Below, piece by piece: positions 2,172 through 13,651 of a stretch of DNA of 64,000 bases (position 1 is its first letter; every line of letters begins with the position of its first letter). The stretch is from Gammaproteobacteria bacterium. GTDB lineage: Bacteria > Pseudomonadota > Gammaproteobacteria > Eutrophobiales > Eutrophobiaceae. The stretch covers positions 1,504,001 to 1,568,000 of the forward strand of contig OZ244905.1 of the NCBI GenBank assembly GCA_965221695.1, read 5' to 3'. Under the pieces are notes generated by a model. That model did not search any database, was not told the origin of the DNA, and was given only the letters and a program-made list of their open reading frames with translations. Made by a program: the position numbers and the translations under genes.

Positions 2172-2459
2172 TCATTTCAAATCTACGAACACGTTCGGAT
2201 GCTGCTCGGCAATTCGTAGAAGAGCAATAGCCGGGCCCTGCGGCTGTGGCCTTCCTTGTTCCCAGTCCTGCAGGGTACGCAGACTTACCCCAATCATGTC
2301 GGCAAACGCCGATTGTGACAGTTCTAACTTAAAGCGAATGGCTTTTGGTTCTGACGGTGCAGAAAGCCTGGTCGTCTTAAGTTTTACCTTGCCCTTCTTA
2401 TACTCCTGAATTTCTTTAAGGCCCGCGAGTATTTCAGCCCCGATATCACGATTTGTCAT
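2172..2459 (-). CDS. HigA-type HTH (Xre/Cro) antitoxin
   Basis: 95 aa; 'IRFKLELSQSAFADMIGVSLRTLQDWEQGR' HTH; overlaps the end of a HigB-like pseudogene. Confidence 0.88.
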   Translation of the reverse strand: MTNRDIGAEILAGLKEIQEYKKGKVKLKTTRLSAPSEPKAIRFKLELSQSAFADMIGVSLRTLQDWEQGRPQPQGPAIALLRIAEQHPNVFVDLK

Positions 2460-2685
2460 GTTTAATGGCCTCCGCTATTTTTTTGAGTCTATGGCCGGGG
2501 ATCGTTGAGCGTTCCGATTTGTCATAGAGCGCCAACATCCATATTTCATGTTCAGACGGTTTCCAGTATTAAATCACTCGAACACCGCCACTTTTACCAC
2601 GGCCACTTTGCGCACTGCGTACTTTCCTCACACCACCGGAACCACGGATAAGGTTGCCGGCATCTGGTTTCATCATCAGATAGGA
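2446..2685 (-). pseudogene. HigB/RelE-family toxin pseudogene
   Basis: Manual translation: ...KPDAGNLIRGSGGVRKVRSAQSGRGKSGGVRVI*YWKPSEHEIWMLALYDKSERSTIPGHRLKKIAEAIKHDKS*. In-frame TAA at 2569-2571; N-terminus missing. Clearly similar to the intact toxin at 10024. Confidence 0.85.
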
Positions 2686-3104
2686 TTACTCGGGTGTGCT
2701 GCCAGGAGGCGAAGATATCGATCATACGCGTGTGTCTGGATAGTCAGGCCATTCTCCCAGCGGTTCAAGGAAGCTACACCGATACCTGTTACTTGAGCAA
2801 ATTCCTCCTGAGTCATACCGAATCCTTTTCTGATGTGACGTATATCGTCAGGCGACAGGACGCTAAGATGCCGGCATACCGCTTCGTGTTGTAATCGTTC
2901 GCCTTCATCATCAAGATATACGAAGTCGCAGTCTTTGCATCGGCGAACAGGTACATTCACTGTCAGTTCCACCATGGATTCACCGGACCCATAGTTGAAT
3001 GCGTGGGAGTTCCATGATGTAGTTATGCTCGCGTTGCCACACAGTGCGCATGTGAGTTCCTGCTTTGCTGTAACCAGCCCAGTTGCTGATGGTTTTGGAT
3101 TCAT
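2676..3104 (-). CDS. MqsA/YgiT-type zinc-finger + HTH antitoxin
   Basis: CALC...CKDC zinc ribbon plus 'IRKGFGMTQEEFAQVTGIGVASLNRWENG' HTH. Probable ATG at 3104, just after the toxin-remnant stop. Confidence 0.85.
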   Translation of the reverse strand: MNPKPSATGLVTAKQELTCALCGNASITTSWNSHAFNYGSGESMVELTVNVPVRRCKDCDFVYLDDEGERLQHEAVCRHLSVLSPDDIRHIRKGFGMTQEEFAQVTGIGVASLNRWENGLTIQTHAYDRYLRLLAAHPSNPI

Positions 3105-3105
3105 T

Positions 3106-3185
3106 TTAGTTATCTCGTTCAGAGTAGTGAAAACTGCGCCCAATGATCTTCCCGGACCCAAGTTGGAGCTTGATTCTAATCACAT
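3106..3185 (-). pseudogene. C-terminal remnant of an MqsR-like toxin
   Basis: Translates ...VIRIKLQLGSGKIIGRSFHYSERDN*, with the IKL...SFH end typical of MqsR-like toxins. Directly upstream of the MqsA-like gene; N-terminal part absent. Confidence 0.6.
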
Positions 3186-3473: not shown

Positions 3474-4754
3474 TTAGCTCTCGTCACTTTCTAACATATC
3501 AATGGCGATGGCTGTGCAGGTGTCGACTATGGCATCCAATACTATGTGGAGCTTCGCGGAATCATACGGGTTGTCTCGTCCTTTTTGATTTAAGAAGGCT
3601 TTCGTGAATTTCTCTTTATGCTGCAAAATGCCCTGATAATGACCAACTTCCTCAATGTGATTCTTCCATTGCACGAGGGGTTGTAGACCTTCTACGTTAA
3701 GATCGAGATAGCACTCGATAGCAGCAGCCCGTCCATTTATATCGGCCAACTGCTTACCATTGGGTCCTGTCGTCGGGAAAGATTTAAATGCTTTAAGATC
3801 GGGTAACTTCATTGCCCGCATATTCATAGGTAGTGCCATGTGATTCAATTTCCGAACCGCTCTGCTTCCCTCCGCGTCATTATCAAGAAGGAAAACTGTC
3901 CGATTTTGTATATCAATGCTTTTTAGACCTTTGGCGAAATTGACTAAATTACCGGTACCGGAGAACGGATGTCCTTTGTTAAAATCGATAAATTGAAAGA
4001 AGTCTGCAATCTCAGGTCGAAGGAATTTGAAGGCTTTCTCCAAAATATGACTGTCGGAACTACCTTCGGTCGCAATCGAATATCTTTGCCTGCGGCGAGC
4101 CCCTGGACGGAATGCACTTTCTTCAGCCCACCCCGCGTAGACCATGGGGCCATATTGCCAGTCCAGATTCAGGTCTAAGTTTGTAGGATTTTCGGCAAGA
4201 AGCCGCAGCAGAGTATAGGGTTGAAGAAAGTCGACAAGGCTTGCGAAGTAGCTCTTCTCTGAGTGCATCGAATTGTCGTAATAATTACAACTAGGAATAC
4301 GTGAATTCAGCAACTCATCAGTAAAACGTCCTTTGATACGGGTCTCATTATCCTTGGACCAACTTAGGTATGAATCATCCAGATCTTTGATATTGACCGT
4401 ATTCACAAAGCTGAGGAATTCTTCAAATGACATGACTTCGAACCGTAACTTGTCGTAGGATTTAGCTAACTCGCTACGGTACAATTTGGCCATCTGTGTA
4501 TATTCGGCTTCAGCCGTTGCCAAATTGTGGCCTAGCAACTCGAGTCGCGGCAGGACAGTGCTGAGGGGACGGCGAAATCCTAATTCCGGTTCCCCTAGAA
4601 GCGGGCTATCATCTTGATCATCATAGTAATACTGGCCGGACTGAAACTTTTTTCGATCACTAGACTGGAAGAGAAATCCATGATCTGCGCCGCGGTGGTT
4701 CTTTGCATATGTGATCGACATCCCCCCGATTTCAAGACAAATCTCTGTTCCCAT
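3474..4754 (-). CDS. HEPN/Toprim-associated N-terminal domain + OLD-like Toprim protein (putative defence nuclease)
   Basis: N-terminus MGT..LEIGG..I.Y.KN....DH..LFQ..D resembles HEPN_Toprim_N. C-terminal Toprim signatures IATEGSSD and LLDNDAEG. Confidence 0.7.
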   Translation of the reverse strand: MGTEICLEIGGMSITYAKNHRGADHGFLFQSSDRKKFQSGQYYYDDQDDSPLLGEPELGFRRPLSTVLPRLELLGHNLATAEAEYTQMAKLYRSELAKSYDKLRFEVMSFEEFLSFVNTVNIKDLDDSYLSWSKDNETRIKGRFTDELLNSRIPSCNYYDNSMHSEKSYFASLVDFLQPYTLLRLLAENPTNLDLNLDWQYGPMVYAGWAEESAFRPGARRRQRYSIATEGSSDSHILEKAFKFLRPEIADFFQFIDFNKGHPFSGTGNLVNFAKGLKSIDIQNRTVFLLDNDAEGSRAVRKLNHMALPMNMRAMKLPDLKAFKSFPTTGPNGKQLADINGRAAAIECYLDLNVEGLQPLVQWKNHIEEVGHYQGILQHKEKFTKAFLNQKGRDNPYDSAKLHIVLDAIVDTCTAIAIDMLESDES

Positions 4755-4942: not shown

Positions 4943-6430
4943 CTAATCTGCCTTCAACCCAGCCAGCACCTCCCGGAAACTGTTAAGTCCGGCTTCAAGG
5001 TTTTCAATGATCTCCTCGGCTAGGTCGTCGGGTTCGGGAAGGTTGTCAAGGTCGGTCAGGCTTTTGTCTTTGAGCCAGAAGATGTCGAGGCTGGTTTTGT
5101 CGCGCGCTTTGATCTTCTCAAGGCTGTAGCTGCGCCAGCGGCCGTCCGGTGCGTCGTTTTCGTGCCAGGTTGCCTTGCGCTCATGCCGGTTCTGTGGGTT
5201 GTAGCACTGGATGAAGTCTGCCAGATCTTCGAATCGCATTGGCTTCTTCTTCAGTGTGTGGTGAATATTGGTGCGGTAATCGTAGTACCAGACTTGTTTG
5301 GTCCAGGGTTCCGGGCTGGCCTCGCGGTTATCGAAGAAAATCACATTAGCCTTCACGCCTTGCGCGTAGAACACACCGGTGGGTAGGCGCAGGATAGTAT
5401 GCAGGTCAGTGTTTTCCAGTAACTTCTGACGAATTGTCTCACCCGCTCCGCCCTCGAACAGTACGTTATCCGGCACAACAATGGCGGCGCGTCCGCTGGT
5501 CTTGAGCATGGTGCGGATGTGCTGCACGAAGTTGAGTTGCTTGTTCGAGGTGCTGGCCCAGAAATCCTGGCGGTTGTAGGTCAGTTGGTCCCGGTCCTGT
5601 TCGCTCTCCTCGTTGGTGAAGGTCATCGAACTTTTCTTGCCGAACGGCGGATTTGCGAGCACATAGTCGAAACGTTTGCCGTTATCGGCCACCAACGAAT
5701 CGTTTGGCGAGACTGGCGCGCCACCGTCGATCTCACCGATGTTGTGCAGGAACATGTTCATCAAACACAGGCGACGCGTGTTGGCAACAATCTCGTTGCC
5801 GTGAAACGCATCGTGCTTCAGAAACGCTTTCTGCGCCTTGTCCAGCATAAAGTTATCCGGGTTGGTCATGAAGTCGTAGGCTGCCAGAAAGAACCCACCT
5901 GTGCCGCAGGCTGGGTCCGCTATCAGTTTGCCGGGTTCGGGCCGCACGCATTCAACCATCGCGCGGATGAGGGCACGCGGTGTGAAATACTGGCCGGCTC
6001 CGGATTTTGTGTCTTCTGCGTTCTTCTCCAACAGCCCTTCGTAGATGTCCCCTTTGATGTCGGCACCCATGGTGACCCACTCGGTGTCGTCAACCATGTC
6101 GATAAGACGGTAGAGTTTCGCCGGGTCTTGAATCTTGTTCTGCGCCTTGGTGAAAATCTGCCCCAGCATACCCGGCCTGGCGCCGAGTTCCCTCAGCAAT
6201 GTGGCATAGTGGCGCTCCAGTTCCGCCCCGTTCCTGGATGTAAGGCTGTGCCAGGCATACTCATCCGGGATGCCGACATCGCGCTGATAGGGCGGTTTGC
6301 CGTACTCATCCGCCATCTTGAGAAAGATCAGATAGGTGAGTTGCTCCAGGTAATCGCCATAGCCCACGCCGTCATCACGCAGGGTGTTGCAGAAGCTCCA
6401 GACTTTGGAGACGATGGGGGCGGCGCTCAT
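4943..6430 (-). CDS. hsdM: Type I restriction-modification methyltransferase subunit M
   Basis: GQYFTPR, DPACGTGGF (SAM binding), NPPF (catalytic); HsdM N-terminal 'LRDDGVGYGDYLEQLTYL'. Confidence 0.96.
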   Translation of the reverse strand: MSAAPIVSKVWSFCNTLRDDGVGYGDYLEQLTYLIFLKMADEYGKPPYQRDVGIPDEYAWHSLTSRNGAELERHYATLLRELGARPGMLGQIFTKAQNKIQDPAKLYRLIDMVDDTEWVTMGADIKGDIYEGLLEKNAEDTKSGAGQYFTPRALIRAMVECVRPEPGKLIADPACGTGGFFLAAYDFMTNPDNFMLDKAQKAFLKHDAFHGNEIVANTRRLCLMNMFLHNIGEIDGGAPVSPNDSLVADNGKRFDYVLANPPFGKKSSMTFTNEESEQDRDQLTYNRQDFWASTSNKQLNFVQHIRTMLKTSGRAAIVVPDNVLFEGGAGETIRQKLLENTDLHTILRLPTGVFYAQGVKANVIFFDNREASPEPWTKQVWYYDYRTNIHHTLKKKPMRFEDLADFIQCYNPQNRHERKATWHENDAPDGRWRSYSLEKIKARDKTSLDIFWLKDKSLTDLDNLPEPDDLAEEIIENLEAGLNSFREVLAGLKAD

Positions 6431-7125
6431 ACAGGGAAGCCCTTTGCCTCAATCTGCCGAACTAAGGCATTGCCAGCCTCAGTGCGTCGGTAGCACTGGT
6501 TCTGACTTCTGGGTTTGTCGGGTACGGCCATTTCGATCAGACCGGCATCAAGGGCTGGGCGTAGATATATAGTCCTGAAGTGCTTCCGGTCTTTCAGTTC
6601 CAGTTTTTCCTGCAATTGCCCGCGACTCATGGATTCTGAAAGTGCTGTCACCAGTCTTAAGACATGTCTAGTCACTTGGGGGGTCACTTGGGGGGTCTTT
6701 TGTATATAGGCCTGTTTTATCAGAGACTTATCTTGTTCGGCCACGTGTCCTGTTACTTGTTCGGTATCTTGTAGGGCGACTTGAGGGGTCACTTGGGGTG
6801 TCACTTGTTCGGTCGCGGGCTGTAAAGCCTGCTGATGTACCGGTAGGCACACCCGGAACCAGGTGCGTTCATCGTCGCTCTCGAAGATCGGAGCCGGGGA
6901 GCCGTTCTCCTCGCTCAGAATCACCGGCAACGGACCGCGGACCTCTTTCTCCTTGAACTGTTCTCTGCCTAGCCTATTGGGGAACCACACCACATCGATT
7001 TGCCTCGTCAGTAAGAATTTGTGTAGTTGGTCGTTGAAAAATAACAACACGACATTCTTCGGGAACAGGGCTTCGGGCGGCCTGCCAACGATGTCTAGGT
7101 TCCGGTCGATAAGCGTATCCGTCAT
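6427..7125 (-). pseudogene. C-terminal fragment of an AlbA_2(Schlafen)/HATPase_c_4/wHTH protein, internally deleted
   Basis: 'PKNVVLLFF..QIDVVWFP..EK...GPL' jumps directly to 'NGSPAPIFESDDERTWF', then QVT-repeat linker and Fic-type C-terminal wHTH 'YLRPALDAGLIEM..PDKPRS.NQ.Y'. The ORF is open and may still be translated. Confidence 0.7.
6671..6815 (-). repeat. Intragenic 12-bp tandem repeats encoding (T-P/E-Q-V)n linker
   Basis: GTCACTTGGGGG-type units at about 6671-6697 and 6750-6815; protein TEQVTPQVTPQV...TPQVTPQVT. Confidence 0.85.
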
Positions 7126-8096
7126 CGTAGCTCCTCTGGCAGTTCGATACCATTCTTGACGAAAAATTCCTTGATTATGTCGTCACCCGATGCCACGCTA
7201 AAGCTGTGAATTTGAACCCCTCCTCCACTGCTCAAGGCGTTAACAGCGTCAAAGAAATTATTCTCATTCAGCCAGTCATACCTCTTGCTAGCCAAGCTTT
7301 CCCAAGTCTTCGTCAATGACCACTCTATCAACTCAGGCTCGGCCGACTGCTCCTCGCCACCGACCAGAATTGGGCCTGGAGCGACATAGCGCCCGTTTTG
7401 TTCCTTTACCTGTGCGCCCCACAAAGATATGATTTTTGTGGACAGGGAATCAGTCGCTTTACCACCAGGCGGCGGATGTATCCCAGACCTGTGTGAAGCC
7501 ACCTTGTTTCTCCATGCCCGCAATGGCTTTGCTTCGGGTATTGATTTAGTGTACTCCCGCGCACGAGATTTAATTTTCTCCATACCATCTTTGCAGAAAG
7601 CAAAATCCTCATAGTTTCCCTCACGCGCCAAAGTATCCAGCAAGCTGACGCCTTCCATGAGATTCAGCATACTCACGCTGAACCAGTCGAACTTGACAGC
7701 TAGATGCGCATAGATGCTATTGACATCGAAATCATGACAGCTATTAGGGTCGCTCGGCAACTTACATTCGAGATTCCTTACTTCTTGATATAGGGAATGA
7801 AGACCGGTACGCAAAACCGCTACATTGCGAACAAAGTTACTGGAATTTTTAAAGTGAGCAATCTTTCCCGGCGGCCAATCCGCCTTGTCCAGTACGACAA
7901 ATCCAAGTTTACTTAGGGCGGCCTCTAATGCCTCTTCTCTCGTTCGTGCCTTCGCGATCACTTCTTTATTCTTCTCCTGTTCAATATAAACAATCCATTC
8001 TATAGGTTCGTCTTCCGAGGGAATCGGTTCCCAACGAAGAATTGTGTCTGCTGTGTGCATGATGTGTTTTAATTCAATGAACTTTGCAACAATCAA
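7122..8096 (-). CDS. Hypothetical protein with HEPN-like RxxxxxH motif (putative RNase effector)
   Basis: 324-aa AT-richer ORF, mostly helical-looking core, '[11 protein letters not shown]'. Start is TTG 8096 or ATG 8060. Confidence 0.6.
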
Positions 8097-8296
8097 GGCG
8101 CATGAACGAGAGTCGCCGAGTCTGCAACGCCCAACACGATGTAACCGCCGCCGAGGTTATGGAAATCGTTTGCGAAAGCGCAGATGGTGTGTAACACGCT
8201 GGCCGGATTCCAGCCTGCCTTGTACTCAATCCGCTCTCCCTCAATGCTGCGCTGGTGCAGTAGGTGGTCGATGTTGATGGGAAGTTCGTTGCTCAT
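8093..8296 (-). pseudogene. N-terminal fragment of AlbA_2 (Schlafen-like) domain protein
   Basis: '[38 protein letters not shown]' is the AlbA_2 core start; the ORF stops after 67 aa. Confidence 0.85.
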
Positions 8297-9849
8297 ACCG
8301 TCGCCGCTTTAGGTTGGCGTCTCTTACCAGTTTTGCCTTTTGATTGTGCCATTTTCTCTGCTCGAATCCGTTCCAGCAGCACAGACGCCGGTTCGTCGTT
8401 GGGGTCTTGCGGGACCAGTTGGCCGGAGAAGGCTTTTTTTAGGATGGATTGGCGGAGGGTATCTATATAACTGAGAGTCCCTATAATTTTCCGTTCCTGC
8501 GCGTCAAGAGTCGTTAGGATATTATCAATCCGCCGACAAAGCACTTCTTGTTCCTCCAACGGAATCAGTGGCACAGGAAACTTGCTAAGAACTGTTTTAT
8601 TGATCGAAGCAAGATTCGTTGTCTGTTTACCTACCTTTTCGAAATATCGCTGTCCAAATGCGTTAGCCCAGTAGGACAGAAGTTTCGAGTTGAATTCTGA
8701 CGTTATATGTGGAGTTGCTCTGAAAACGTGATTTTGGGTTATACACGGCACAATTTCAGACTGCCAAATCCAACCTCGGCCAAGTTTGTCCCGATCTCCT
8801 CCTTCGTTAAATAGTATATCCCACTTCTTGAGTTGAAGAGCGGCAAGCTGGGATTTCTCTATTCTCATATGCTTGATTTCGGAAAGATCGAGAACTCCTC
8901 GTTGCACGTTCGCCACCCGCAAGTAGGGAACTTCCATCGGATCTTTGAACTTTCGTCTAGCACTGACCGACATTCCTGAACCTATTTCCGCAACTTGGCA
9001 AAGACGTACGAGATACCAACTTTCGGGTGTATTTGGTAGCTCGTATTTTTCCTGAGAAGCTATTTCTGTGGTTGTCGTCACTCTGTTCGGTTTTGTTGGC
9101 TTCTTGATTGAATCTCCTTCTGCTTTCCACTCTCTAACAGCAACCCTCCATTCCTCAAGTTGCCGCTCATAGTGGGCTTCCCGCTCCCGCTTGATGCGAG
9201 CGAGCAATTGCTCGGGTGTTTCGAGTTTGCCCTTGTTCTTCTTACGCCAATCCGCGGTGAGCTTGCCTTCAAAGGCGTGTTTGAGTACGGCCTGACGGTA
9301 GACTGCAAGCTGCGCTCGTGCCGTCTTCAGGCTTTCAATGCCCTTGTCCAGCTCGGAAAAGAGTTCCTCGATCTTGGCGATGATCCGATTTTGTTCAAGC
9401 AACGGTGGTAAATGAAGCTCGAAACTTTCAATTAACGCCTTAGTAATGGCCTTGAATGTCGAGCCTGTCCCTTTTCCTGATATATCAGGCTCTGCACTTC
9501 TGAATAGATACAGCAGGAACTTCGGCTCAATTCCCCCAAGGGGGTGAAGTGCTGCTAATCCTCGACCAATGCAGCACTCGTGTTGCACCAGATTAGTTGG
9601 TCCAACGGGAGCTCGAACCGACAGTAGCGTTGCGCCTGGTTTGGCCACCTTATTGGGCTTTGAACAATACAGGTTGACGGTTGGGGATAGATCGCCGAAT
9701 TCCGCCTTCCCCTGAAAGAAAGGAAGGCCATCCCCGTTACGGTTATAGGTCCTGGAAGAGGGGGACTGGCCCATCACGATGTGCGTGAAATCGATAAGAA
9801 TGCATCGTTGCCATCCCTTAGGGACTGTGTTCTTTACGAAATCGGTCAT
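8293..9849 (-). CDS. hsdS: Type I restriction-modification specificity subunit S
   Basis: Two TRDs separated by conserved '[31 protein letters not shown]'; ends '[30 protein letters not shown]'. Confidence 0.95.
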
Positions 9850-10023: not shown

Positions 10024-10353
10024 ATGCATTTGTACTTTACTCGAGCTTATGAACGCGCCATTAGCAAATTGCTCTCGCCACCGGCCCGAGGTGAAATGGA
10101 ATCGGCAATTATGTCCGCTCCCGATTCGGCGCCCGTTATTCGGGGGACAGGCGGCATCCGCAAGCTGCGATGGGCGGGTTCCGGTCGCGGCAAGCGAGGT
10201 GGCATCCGCGTAATCTACTTCTACCCTGGTCCCGAAGCGATTTATATGCTGACGGCATATGCGAAGGCAGAGCGCGAAGATTTGTCGGCAGCGGATATGA
10301 AGGTGTTGTCCAAGCAGGTGGCAGAAATCAAAAAAGAGAGGCGAAAACGATGA
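10024..10353 (+). CDS. HigB/RelE-family toxin
   Basis: 'IRGTGGIRKLRWAGSGRGKRGGIRVIYF...LTAYAK.E.EDLS'; toxin-first order. Confidence 0.92.
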   Translation: MHLYFTRAYERAISKLLSPPARGEMESAIMSAPDSAPVIRGTGGIRKLRWAGSGRGKRGGIRVIYFYPGPEAIYMLTAYAKAEREDLSAADMKVLSKQVAEIKKERRKR

Positions 10354-10691
10354 ATGAACGCACCAAGATCGGTCAGGAGATTGAAGCGGCCCTCGGCGAG
10401 GTGCTGGCTCATGTGCGCGGCGAGGCTGTGCTGGCTTGCCGGATTGTAGATGACCCCAGTGCCGCGCGGATTGTTGCGCTGCGTAAACGATTGAAGCTGA
10501 GCCGGCAGAAGTTCGCGGACCGATTTGGCCTTGATGTGCGCGCTGTGCAGGACTGGGAGCAGGGCCGACGGGTTCCGGAACGGGCTGCACGCGTCTTGCT
10601 GACCGTGATTGACCATGATCCGGATTCGGTTGCGCGTGCGCTCGCCGCAGGGGCAACAAAGCCCGGGGATGCCCAAATTGCGGCTCAGTGA
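10350..10691 (+). CDS. HigA-type HTH antitoxin
   Basis: ATGA overlap with the toxin; 'LRKRLKLSRQKFADRFGLDVRAVQDWEQGRR'. Confidence 0.9.
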   Translation: MNERTKIGQEIEAALGEVLAHVRGEAVLACRIVDDPSAARIVALRKRLKLSRQKFADRFGLDVRAVQDWEQGRRVPERAARVLLTVIDHDPDSVARALAAGATKPGDAQIAAQ

Positions 10692-10707: not shown

Positions 10708-10818
10708 AAGGTAAAAGGAAGAAGGAGGAAGGAAGAAACGCGCGTTGAAATCAACGCGCGGCCTTTCGCTTCGCATTGTCCTTGTTACTTCTGCCTTTAT
10801 CCTTCTACCTTTTTCCTT
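10708..10818. repeat. Inverted heptamer-array element with central hairpin
   Basis: 4 x AAGGNNN (10708-10735), perfect palindrome CGCGCGTTGA-AA-TCAACGCGCG (10739-10760), 4 x NNNCCTT (10791-10818). Lies between convergent higA and hsdR. Confidence 0.75.
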
Positions 10819-13583
10819 CACGCTGCCAACGCCTCATTCATCTCATCAATCACACTATCCATCCGGTCTCCGAACAGCTCGTACATCCGACCCCGGCCGC
10901 CTTTGGCATCGAACGGCGTCATTTCGAGGTCGTTCTTATCCAAGTGGAACGAAGTGATGATATGTTCGCGAATCATGCGCAACCAATCCATCTGTTCTTC
11001 GTTGAACTTTTCACCGGCGCCGCTGTGGTGCGTCATAATCCAGGTCTGGAAGTTGCGGCGTACGGTTTCTGCATAAGTCGACAATCTGGCATCAATGCCG
11101 CAGACGCGACGAATCAATGCCATAAGCGCTGTTAATTCGGTAACCGGCTGGGAACCTTTATATTCGTCAAGAAGTTCATATGCCTGCCATACGCGCAACG
11201 GCGCCAGCTTGGGCCGGTCGCGCTTTAACCGGTCCAAGACTTCCCGGATCATCGCGTAGGTCAACTCTCGTCGGCGATAGGGCTGGGAGAAGAAAATCGT
11301 CAGCGCTTCAATCTCATCGCGGTTGGCTTCCAGGTATTGCCGGAAGTCCTCCACCATACTCTTCGCATTCTCGTGCGCGGCATCTGCCCATCCGGCGCTG
11401 AGCAAGGTATCCGGGTTGTCGTGGTCGATGGTCTGTTCTTTGTCCCGGCGAATTGAGTCGATCAATTGGATCAGTTTACCGTTGAATACCTTGGCTGCTT
11501 CGTTCACCAACTGTTCCTGGGCCTGTACGCGCACTGCCTCCGTTGGCTCAGCGTCATTCGCCACCGGTTTTATCTCGCGGGCTTTCTCCTCGATTCTGTC
11601 CGGGTCTATCGCGGCCAGCAGATCGCTGACGATCCGGGTGAGTTCGATGCCCCCGGCTTGCGCCGTGATCTTTTCTTTCTCGGCCGGATCGAGTTGCTGA
11701 TTCAGCCGCGCGAGACGGCCGGCCAGCGAACTCACCGTTTCTTCGTCGCGCGCGCCCATCATCACATTCATTGCAAGGTCTTTGAGTGGAACAGTAGGCT
11801 TGGTGTCCAGCGGTTGGCTGGCCGTTTTCACTGATTTGGTTACCCCGACCGCGTCAACGATCACATAGTGGGTCTTTGCGCTGGTAGCGGAGGGTGAGAC
11901 TTTCTTGAGATCGTCATGATCGAGGGTACGCGTGCCCCGGCCCTTCATCTGCTCGAAGTAATTACGGCTCTTGACATCGCGCATGAACAGCAGGCATTCG
12001 AGCGGTTTTACATTGGTGCCGGTGGCAATCATGTCCACGGTCACGGCGATACGCGGGTTATAATCATTGCGAAGCTGACTGAGGACCGTCTTGGGATCGT
12101 CATCGATCCGGTAGGTGACTTTCTTGCAAAAGGCATTACCTTCACCGAACTCTTCCCGCACGGTCTGGATAATGTCATCGGCGTGGCTGTCGGTCTTGGC
12201 GAAGATCAGCGTCTTCGGGATCTCTTTGCGGACCGGAAAGATTTCCGGCAATTTGTCGCGAAACGTCTTGATCACCAAGCGAATCTGGTCGGGGTTGACA
12301 ACGCTGCGGTCGAGTTGCCTGGTGTCATAGGTCTCGTCCTCGTCCTGGGTCTCCCAGCGCTTGCGTCTTGACAGGCGCTCACGCTTCTCGACGAGCTGCT
12401 CCGCCTTGAGTTGACCGCCGTGTTTCGTCACCTCCGTGTCGATGACATAGATTTCGTTGCCCACATTGACGCCGTCGGCAACGGCCTGCTCGTGGGTATA
12501 CTCACTGACAACATTCTGCTTGAAGAATCCGAAAGTGCGGTTATCTGGCGTTGCGGTCAAACCGATAAGATAAGCGTCGAAATATTCTAGTACCTGAAGC
12601 CAGAGATTATAGATGGAGCGGTGGCATTCGTCGATGACGATGAAATCGAAGAACTCCGGTGGAATCTTCGCGTTATAGTCTACTGTTTGGGGTTGTTTAG
12701 GCTGTACCCTCTCCGCCGGGTTGGACTCCTCGGTGGCTTCGTCGAATTCCTGGCCTTTAAGCAGTGAATACATTCTCTGGATGGTACTGATGCAGACCTG
12801 ACTGTCCTTGGCCACAAAGGATGATTTCAATCGTTGGACGTTATAAAGTTCTGTGAACTTGCGGTTGTCGTCGCTCGGCACATAAGCCATGAATTCCTGC
12901 TCGGCCTGTTCGCCCAGATTCCGGGTGTCCACAAGAAAGAGGATGCGTTTGGCGCCGGCATGTTTAAGCAACCGGTAGATCGACGTGACCGCAGTGTAGG
13001 TCTTACCTGAACCGGTGGCCATCTGAATAAGGGCGCGGGGACGGTCTTCCTTGAATGAGGTTTCCAATTTCTGAATGGCGTTGAATTGGCATGTTCTGAG
13101 TCCCCCAGGGTCCAACTCTGGCAGGCTGTGAAACCGGGCGCGCAGCGTGTCCGATTGTGCGTACCAGTCCCGTAGCGTCTCTGGTCGAAAAAAGCTGAAT
13201 GCTTCGCGGGAACGGGGGTGTGGATCGCGCTTATCGGTAAAGCGTGTGAGTACCCCTGTGCTCTCGTACACAAAAGTCATGGGTTCTTTGTTGTTAAACC
13301 ACTTGAGCCTGGCGTTGGCATAAGTGGCGGATTGTTCTTCAACCTTGGTTAGCTTGTGGCCGTAGTATTTCGGTTTGGCCTCGATAATGCCAACGGGTTT
13401 TTTGTCGATCAACAGCGCGTAGTCAGCGGGGCCAACATCTGTCGGATACTCGCGAACAGCAATCCCGGAGCCTGCGCTGAAGTCGATTTCATTCTTTGAT
13501 TGCACCTTCCAACCGGCCTGTTCCAGCTTGTCATCAATGACCTCGCGGGCCTGCTGTTCGGGGGTTCGGTTTCCTTCACTCAT
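10818..13583 (-). CDS. hsdR: Type I restriction enzyme subunit R (EcoEI-like)
   Basis: Nuclease ADY..IIEAK, Walker A MATGSGKT, DECHR, GLTATP, QMKGRGTR. Probable start MSEGNRTPEQQAR at 13583. Confidence 0.96.
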   Translation of the reverse strand: MSEGNRTPEQQAREVIDDKLEQAGWKVQSKNEIDFSAGSGIAVREYPTDVGPADYALLIDKKPVGIIEAKPKYYGHKLTKVEEQSATYANARLKWFNNKEPMTFVYESTGVLTRFTDKRDPHPRSREAFSFFRPETLRDWYAQSDTLRARFHSLPELDPGGLRTCQFNAIQKLETSFKEDRPRALIQMATGSGKTYTAVTSIYRLLKHAGAKRILFLVDTRNLGEQAEQEFMAYVPSDDNRKFTELYNVQRLKSSFVAKDSQVCISTIQRMYSLLKGQEFDEATEESNPAERVQPKQPQTVDYNAKIPPEFFDFIVIDECHRSIYNLWLQVLEYFDAYLIGLTATPDNRTFGFFKQNVVSEYTHEQAVADGVNVGNEIYVIDTEVTKHGGQLKAEQLVEKRERLSRRKRWETQDEDETYDTRQLDRSVVNPDQIRLVIKTFRDKLPEIFPVRKEIPKTLIFAKTDSHADDIIQTVREEFGEGNAFCKKVTYRIDDDPKTVLSQLRNDYNPRIAVTVDMIATGTNVKPLECLLFMRDVKSRNYFEQMKGRGTRTLDHDDLKKVSPSATSAKTHYVIVDAVGVTKSVKTASQPLDTKPTVPLKDLAMNVMMGARDEETVSSLAGRLARLNQQLDPAEKEKITAQAGGIELTRIVSDLLAAIDPDRIEEKAREIKPVANDAEPTEAVRVQAQEQLVNEAAKVFNGKLIQLIDSIRRDKEQTIDHDNPDTLLSAGWADAAHENAKSMVEDFRQYLEANRDEIEALTIFFSQPYRRRELTYAMIREVLDRLKRDRPKLAPLRVWQAYELLDEYKGSQPVTELTALMALIRRVCGIDARLSTYAETVRRNFQTWIMTHHSGAGEKFNEEQMDWLRMIREHIITSFHLDKNDLEMTPFDAKGGRGRMYELFGDRMDSVIDEMNEALAA

Positions 13584-13651
13584 TGCGGATATTCTTTGGG
13601 TAGTCGTGTGCCAGCAAACCCAGCGTGGATCATATCTGCAGTCCGCCACTC

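Follow-up and report, generated by a model that had tools for sequence, protein, structure and literature searches.

A HEPN-like gene carried as a one-gene cassette within a type I restriction operon of a gammaproteobacterium

Is a HEPN gene that sits in a restriction operon a guard of the restriction enzyme or simply a lodger? The question dates from 2013, and it is raised again by a locus in the Gammaproteobacteria bacterium assembly GCA_965221695.1 (contig OZ244905.1, positions 1,504,001 to 1,568,000 of the forward strand), a stretch of 64,000 nucleotides that we analysed as a whole and refer to as the window. Between hsdS and hsdM of a type I restriction-modification (R-M) operon lies an open reading frame (ORF) that an initial annotation, made from the sequence alone, had taken to encode a HEPN-like back-up toxin. 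The ORF list confirms an intact 324-aa frame from a TTG codon, at window 7122-8096 on the minus strand. We find that the gene does not belong to the operon by design, being the only gene of an inserted cassette that broke an AlbA_2 accessory gene. The explanation that we favour, with a probability of roughly 0.6, is that the cassette gene encodes a self-contained, dimeric, metal-independent HEPN abortive-infection RNase of an uncatalogued family, which arrived as a one-gene cassette. The principal features are as follows, with residue numbers counted from the TTG of the 324-aa frame, in which ATG 8060 is M13.

7095..8124, minus strand: one-gene cassette of 1,030 bp, delimited by blastn against locus L020, by contigs of sequencing runs X1 and X2 and by GC content
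7122..8060, minus strand: cassette gene from its likely ATG, 312 aa; the open frame reaches TTG 8096 (324 aa)
7851..8060, minus strand: predicted N-terminal alpha/beta domain, aa 13-82, beta-beta-beta-alpha-beta-beta, in the long-form clade only
7419..7841, minus strand: predicted helical HEPN-like core, aa 86-226
7491..7511, minus strand: codons R196-N-K-V-A-S-H202, an Rx5H HEPN-type motif (RNKVASH), from alignment A3 of 102 sequences

The limits of the cassette emerge from alleles that lack it. Another genome of the same class (G012) carries, at locus L020, an intact 536-aa AlbA_2/HATPase_c_4-type/Fic-like_C gene that immediately precedes a closely similar hsdM, and blastn against this locus returns three blocks. 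Window 8286-8127, within the AlbA_2 5′ fragment, corresponds to the first codons of the intact gene (82.5% DNA identity), window 7089-6900 to its middle (70.5%), and window 6567-4962 to its end plus hsdM (79%). Homology breaks at window 8127 and returns at 7089, and about 1,037 bp of the window therefore occupy the place of 466 bp in L020. The AlbA_2 protein of another locus, L002, was tried as a map for the fragments in the window and set aside as too distant in favour of this intact homologue. Public assemblies of runs X1 and X2 contain a contig that links 7094 to 8125 through 459 other letters, a cassette-less allele, and a second X1 contig of 1,321 bp carries the cassette with zero differences; the depths of the cassette-less and cassette contigs in X1 (45.6 and 66.6) are to be read, like the contigs themselves, as showing that both forms exist and not in what proportions. 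In GC content the cassette (0.455-0.50) is below hsdM and the AlbA_2 remnant (0.54-0.57), and no terminal direct or inverted repeats bound it. The cassette has thus replaced about 460 bp in the middle of an AlbA_2/Fic-like_C accessory gene, and the two alleles of the operon, which differ by 1,030 bp against 459 bp inside an embedded accessory gene, provide a natural example of gene movement. In a separate difference between related strains, X1 (depth 179) and X2 (depth 19.5) contigs hold 674 other letters for 677 bp of hsdS at window 8460-9136, which is an alternative allele of a target-recognition domain.

The placement of the gene inside a type I operon, as first annotated, is upheld, with hsdR, hsdS and hsdM co-oriented around it. 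The 4-nt stop/start overlaps reported at its two ends are also real (TTGA 8096-8093 and ATGA 7125-7122), but the partners are not hsdS and hsdM: its direct neighbours are the two halves of the broken accessory gene, and hsdS and hsdM lie outside these, each overlapping its fragment by 4 nt. In minus-strand order the operon reads:

10818..13649, minus strand: hsdR, 943 aa (Pfam ResIII, EcoEI_R_C, HSDR_N and Helicase_C)
8293..9849, minus strand: hsdS, 518 aa (Pfam Methylase_S, two stretches)
8093..8296, minus strand: AlbA_2 (Schlafen-type) 5′ fragment, 67 aa (Pfam SLFN_AlbA_2, positions 1-45 of 118 only)
7122..8060, minus strand: cassette gene
6427..7125, minus strand: AlbA_2 3′ remnant, a 232-aa frame with Fic-like_C at its end (Pfam E 4.4e-22)
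4943..6430, minus strand: hsdM, 495 aa (Pfam N6_Mtase E 1e-71, HsdM_N)

The 5′ fragment also matches positions 1-61 of 387 of the PADLOC model PDC-S50. Its last ten codons fall inside the cassette, as does the ATG of the 3′ remnant, and the remnant has in addition lost about 116 internal codons, corresponding to the HATPase_c_4 part, with its residues 6-73 and 71-226 matching G012 348 nt apart. Both pieces are still open frames despite the breakage, and their overlaps with hsdS and hsdM are intact. The 12-nt periodic repeats at window 6662-6820 encode a TPQV-rich linker in the remnant, whose counterpart in the intact G012 homologue is a GTEQ/GTPQ repeat. A second assembly (locus L001) carries a 99% identical copy of the cassette gene with an intact frame and the same layout; in it the 3′ remnant is split further, into 146-aa and 78-aa frames.

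These alleles bear directly on the guard question. In a PrrC-like guard the type I complex would hold the HEPN RNase inactive, perhaps through the N-terminal domain, and the RNase would fire when a phage anti-restriction protein disables the complex. The cassette, however, destroyed an unrelated accessory gene on its arrival, and the sister allele of the operon lacks it; the operon therefore does not need the cassette gene. In favour of such a coupling, the minus strand from hsdS to hsdM yielded neither a promoter-like nor a terminator-like site. This points weakly to co-transcription, and the cassette gene probably shares a transcript with the restriction genes.

The cassette gene is not a chance frame, since 27 clusters match it at E ≤ 1e-35 and 260 cluster representatives at E ≤ 1e-3. 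The former are proteins with 43-60% identity, from a word-indexed search of 5.8 billion clusters; the latter come from a profile search of 1.84 billion representatives, in which 80 are at or below 1e-10 and 12 at or below 1e-30. Translation likely begins at ATG 8060, giving a 312-aa product, because the N-termini of the relatives align to M13, and so the TTGA overlap may not contain the working start. No Pfam, NCBIfam or PADLOC (v2.0.0) model matches the protein at threshold. The description of it as an orphan stands only insofar as no curated model covers it. It belongs to a small family of 27 clusters within a wider set of about 260 (counted at 50% identity). The majority of the wider set are about 210 aa long and match the core alone; in comparison with these short forms, the clade found in the window, the long form, has an extra N-terminal domain and a C-terminal extension (aa 275-324). 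The short N-terminal alpha/beta module noted at the outset (about aa 15-70) is present in the predicted structure at aa 18-81. A search with this domain alone (aa 13-85) returned only the query itself. The genome has no second copy of the gene at E ≤ 0.01, and tblastn of the protein against 72,556 plasmids gave zero matches; a short-form member used in the same way matched one record.

Evidence that the protein has an active site under selection comes from alignment A3, whose 102 relatives extend down to 21% identity. The 11-residue stretch singled out initially lies at aa 192-202 and ends in RNKVASH, and both its arginine and its histidine prove to be conserved:

R196: 102 of 102
residue after R196 being N, D or H: 100 of 102
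K198: 101 of 102
H202: 101 of 102
E110: 100 of 102
W138: 100 of 102
W259: 101 of 102

The near-invariance of these catalytic-type residues among such distant relatives argues for selection on an active site. It also counts against the possibility that the product is a non-catalytic or decaying passenger, either a helical protein that binds RNA or a ligand, or a recent transfer without a current function in this host, as does the intact frame here and in the L001 copy. Such a passenger would fit the decay of neighbouring genes at the locus, the absence of any RNA run among the sequencing runs that carry the stretch and fold matches that are just middling (see below), yet we regard it as the most improbable of the explanations considered.

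What kind of active site might this be? The HEPN superfamily is defined by an Rx4-6H motif whose arginine is followed by a polar residue, namely N, D or H (Anantharaman et al. 2013, PMC3710099, cited here and below from excerpts), and RNKVASH at aa 196-202 has this form. Pfam HEPN_AbiU2 matches 25 of 69 relatives below threshold (best E 9e-4), every other Pfam family listed for these relatives being matched by one member only, and no HEPN family besides AbiU2 appears in Pfam scans of the protein and its relatives. The cassette protein itself scores 11.7 bits against HEPN_AbiU2 (PF18734; E 0.18) over aa 177-205 only, short of the gathering cut-off of 26.8. When the family was aligned by hhalign with 13 genuine AbiU2 genes collected from 401 genomes, the probability was 67.9% (E 4.8e-5), the match covering 36 columns around the motif, and the word R[ND]KxxxH occurs in six of the 13. 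At two of 45 metagenome loci genuine HEPN_AbiU2 genes immediately adjoin short-form members (L047:878-1549, E ~4e-18; L056:514-1098, E ~5e-18), so that the two families are separate and paralogous; by these sequence comparisons the family of the cassette gene is a distant relative of AbiU2 and not a member of it.

Two structure searches with the computed fold ranked HEPN toxins of HEPN-MNT pairs at the top, although with middling matches, and Foldseek against the PDB found nothing at E ≤ 1e-3 for either the full or the core model. The ESM Atlas offered, as leads only, unnamed clusters at 0.87-0.89 and a farther cluster at 0.79 with HEPN_AbiU2 on 26% of its members. A profile search of PDB sequences produced a single match, at E 1.2, which we judged to be chance.

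HEPN active sites are composite, with two motifs joined across a dimer. The cassette protein is predicted to form a homodimer with a score of 0.66, compared with 0.00 for the best control, the mark for this score having been attained by 20 of 30 proteins whose solved structures are pairs and by one of 23 whose structures are single chains; the runs share at least 45% of contacts, with pLDDT of at least 73. The predicted interface is symmetric about W138. Residues 200-208 and R196 lie in it, R196 being in contact with residue 201 of the partner copy, and a composite HEPN site would be expected to show this modelled geometry. Taking the conserved R[NDH]KxxxH motif, the AbiU2 profile matches, the structure searches and the predicted dimer together, we accept the initial assignment to HEPN with considerable confidence.

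We propose a mechanism on this basis, in which the RNase activity, the trigger and the abortive outcome are inferred. Two copies of the protein would pair through the invariant FDWFS helix, uniting the two R196...H202 motifs into one composite RNase site. The enzyme would remain silent, with its own N- and C-terminal extensions perhaps acting as the restraint, until freed by a cue of phage origin; it would then cut cellular or phage RNA, so that infection is halted and the cell sacrificed. We take the operon to be a landing site and a source of expression for the cassette, and the restriction enzyme not to be an obligate partner. A conserved family with an invariant R..K...H site, small, soluble-looking and predicted to be dimeric, thus joins the candidate anti-phage effectors.

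The genomic contexts of the relatives were examined next. Of 17 loci from species-representative genomes, many of which are Dehalococcoidia by record title and not mutually independent, eight have a co-oriented restriction gene as their upstream neighbour:

L001, L002, L007: type I restriction gene upstream
L008: type II methylase/EcoO109I pair upstream
L010, L012, L015: PLD-helicase plus Eco57I/Type-ISP-like methylase upstream, in L012 with an 86-aa ORF between
L011: Eco57I-like methylase plus MTaX1-HNH upstream
L013: Mrr-type nuclease alongside, on the opposite strand
L014: methylase about 2.7 kb upstream, past a transposase gene
L003: AbiEii gene, then the family member
L004, L005, L006, L009, L016, L017: no restriction gene (6 of 17)

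The expectation that relatives would be found in restriction and defence settings is thus borne out at many loci. The 45 metagenome loci are all short forms, many on contigs of less than 2 kb; each matches the family profile at E ≤ 3.7e-22, but they were retrieved by a motif pattern (alignment A1) and their motifs are not independent evidence. Restriction genes are present at four of them (L046, L048, L049 and L066), of which L048 and L049 are seemingly one locus. Other neighbours in this set include Phd/ParE, PIN, resolvase, integrase, relaxase/MobC, Mu-type transposase and AbiEii genes, and HicA genes also lie beside relatives. The sole plasmid relative (L087; NC_009661.1, 14-2942) is on pS18501 of Shewanella baltica OS185, downstream of TIR-domain and caspase-family genes. 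The family is therefore associated with defence and mobile elements, and restriction operons are a frequent but not an obligate home.

For the guard model these contexts cut both ways. Three of six independent loci of the long-form clade stand directly after hsdS in type I operons (the present locus and L001 counted as one, L002 and L007), restriction genes of type I, type II and type IIG/ISP-like kinds precede short forms, and such a model has been proposed generally, at least 16 HEPN clades being linked to R-M systems and the analogy with PrrC being drawn for all of them (PMC3710099). On the other hand, the restriction partners of the relatives represent at least four architectures without a common subunit, and other relatives accompany AbiEii, ParE/Phd, integrase, relaxase or TIR/caspase genes with no restriction gene nearby. 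In addition, the protein lacks an ABC-ATPase, the regulatory half of PrrC: PrrC of EcoprrI and RloC resemble the cassette gene in being HEPN RNase genes embedded in a type I hsd operon, but they have an N-terminal ABC-ATPase (PMC3710099), whereas in the cassette protein, as the initial annotation had noted, Pfam, NCBIfam and PADLOC find no ATPase family, and an alpha/beta N-terminus of about 70 aa takes its place. We therefore consider a guard unlikely, although it is the strongest of the alternatives to a self-contained effector.

A rather less likely and more speculative coupling would be confined to the long-form clade, which could be a restriction-coupled sensor-effector. Its N-terminal domain, which is weakly dsRBD-like (double-stranded RNA-binding domain) and absent from the short forms, might read a signal tied to type I activity or its inhibition, either a subunit of the complex or a nucleic-acid product, and open the HEPN site, with the AlbA_2 gene acting as a landing pad for swapping one-gene effectors between strains.

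The same neighbourhoods raise the prospect of an addiction toxin, a HEPN RNase that would stabilise the island or exclude competitors, with its antitoxin elsewhere or in a neighbour and no direct role against phage. HEPN domains often serve as the toxin in toxin-antitoxin systems (PMC3710099), the top structural matches are of this type, and relatives lie beside Phd/ParE, PIN, HicA and AbiEii genes. A LigT-type 2H phosphoesterase (2′,5′ RNA ligase family) directly upstream of short forms in two metagenome loci (L072:3-326 and L076:3-500) might undo RNA damage; it could act on the cyclic-phosphate RNA ends left by HEPN RNases and is a candidate antidote or repair partner. The cassette, however, carries one gene only, and no MNT gene or other conserved small partner recurs beside members at the loci examined. 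HEPN-MNT pairs have an adjacent MNT antitoxin gene, whereas the cassette gene is flanked by AlbA_2 fragments, and we view an addiction role as improbable.

The self-contained HEPN effector that we favour can be set against several described systems. AbiU2, an abortive-infection protein of Lactococcus lactis, is likewise a solo HEPN protein with a core of about 200 aa and the R[ND]KxxAH word, is the sole Pfam family repeatedly matched by relatives of the cassette protein, and is listed as found in R-M operons (PMC3710099, Table 1). It differs in that no examined member of the cassette gene's family is reported above the Pfam cut-off and the alignment is limited to the motif helix, and the clade in the window has its added N-terminal domain and C-terminal extension. 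The Bxe_C0808 HEPN family, compared here by description only, has a conserved motif and is described as 'in operon with AbiU2' (PMC3710099, Table 1), a trait shared by the two short-form metagenome loci with AbiU2 neighbours. A full-text search of the literature naming AbiU2 or Bxe_C0808 gave no functional study of the family of the cassette gene.

The initial annotation had also put the locus forward as the best candidate in the window for an undescribed system, and this is not borne out: HEPN clades in R-M operons were published together with the PrrC analogy in 2013 (PMC3710099), and defence genes embedded in type I R-M loci were catalogued in 2024 (Payne et al., bioRxiv 10.1101/2024.01.29.577857, cited from excerpts). 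A HEPN gene in a restriction operon is an arrangement already known, and it is the family itself that is uncatalogued. Under the term 'guilt-by-embedding', the latter study describes defence genes nested in loci of four kinds (type I R-M, BREX, DISARM and Hma); its catalogue for BREX, DISARM and type I R-M comprises 17,432 non-redundant embedded genes. Among these is HEC-08, an embedded HEPN protein whose defence needs the Rx4-6H histidine; like the cassette gene it is one defence-type gene lodged within an immune operon of several genes, but its HEPN is of the DUF3644 type, and its C-terminal domains are zinc-finger-like. The cassette here, moreover, has settled within an embedded gene and not in a gap between operon genes. 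ApeA, a HEPN anticodon nuclease, is a further solo HEPN defence protein that is embedded in R-M operons in some lineages, and it is triggered by deoxydinucleotides, small products of DNA breakdown, without touching the restriction enzyme (bioRxiv 10.64898/2026.01.26.701840, from excerpts). Its oligomers are large and doughnut-shaped and have a ligand pocket, in contrast to the predicted dimer here, and no Pfam sequence match to HEPN_Apea was found in the cassette protein or its relatives.

The surroundings of the operon also vary. On the minus strand, window 3474-4754 encodes a protein of 426 aa that contains a full HEPN_Toprim_N domain (E 1.2e-51); its gene lies 188 bp beyond hsdM on the downstream side. 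In the near-identical locus L001 this position is occupied by a PD-Lambda-4_A-like gene of 1,371 aa on the opposite strand; the downstream flank is therefore a variable defence slot as well. Between hsdR and hsdS, window 10024-10691 on the plus strand contains a 109-aa RelE-family toxin ORF and an HTH/MqsA-like antitoxin ORF, where L001 has a 312-aa ORF without a family match. Just past the HEPN_Toprim_N gene, at window 2172-3161 on the minus strand, are two MqsA/HTH_3-type antitoxin-like ORFs of 95 and 161 aa, the longer of which has a zinc-ribbon-like N-terminus.
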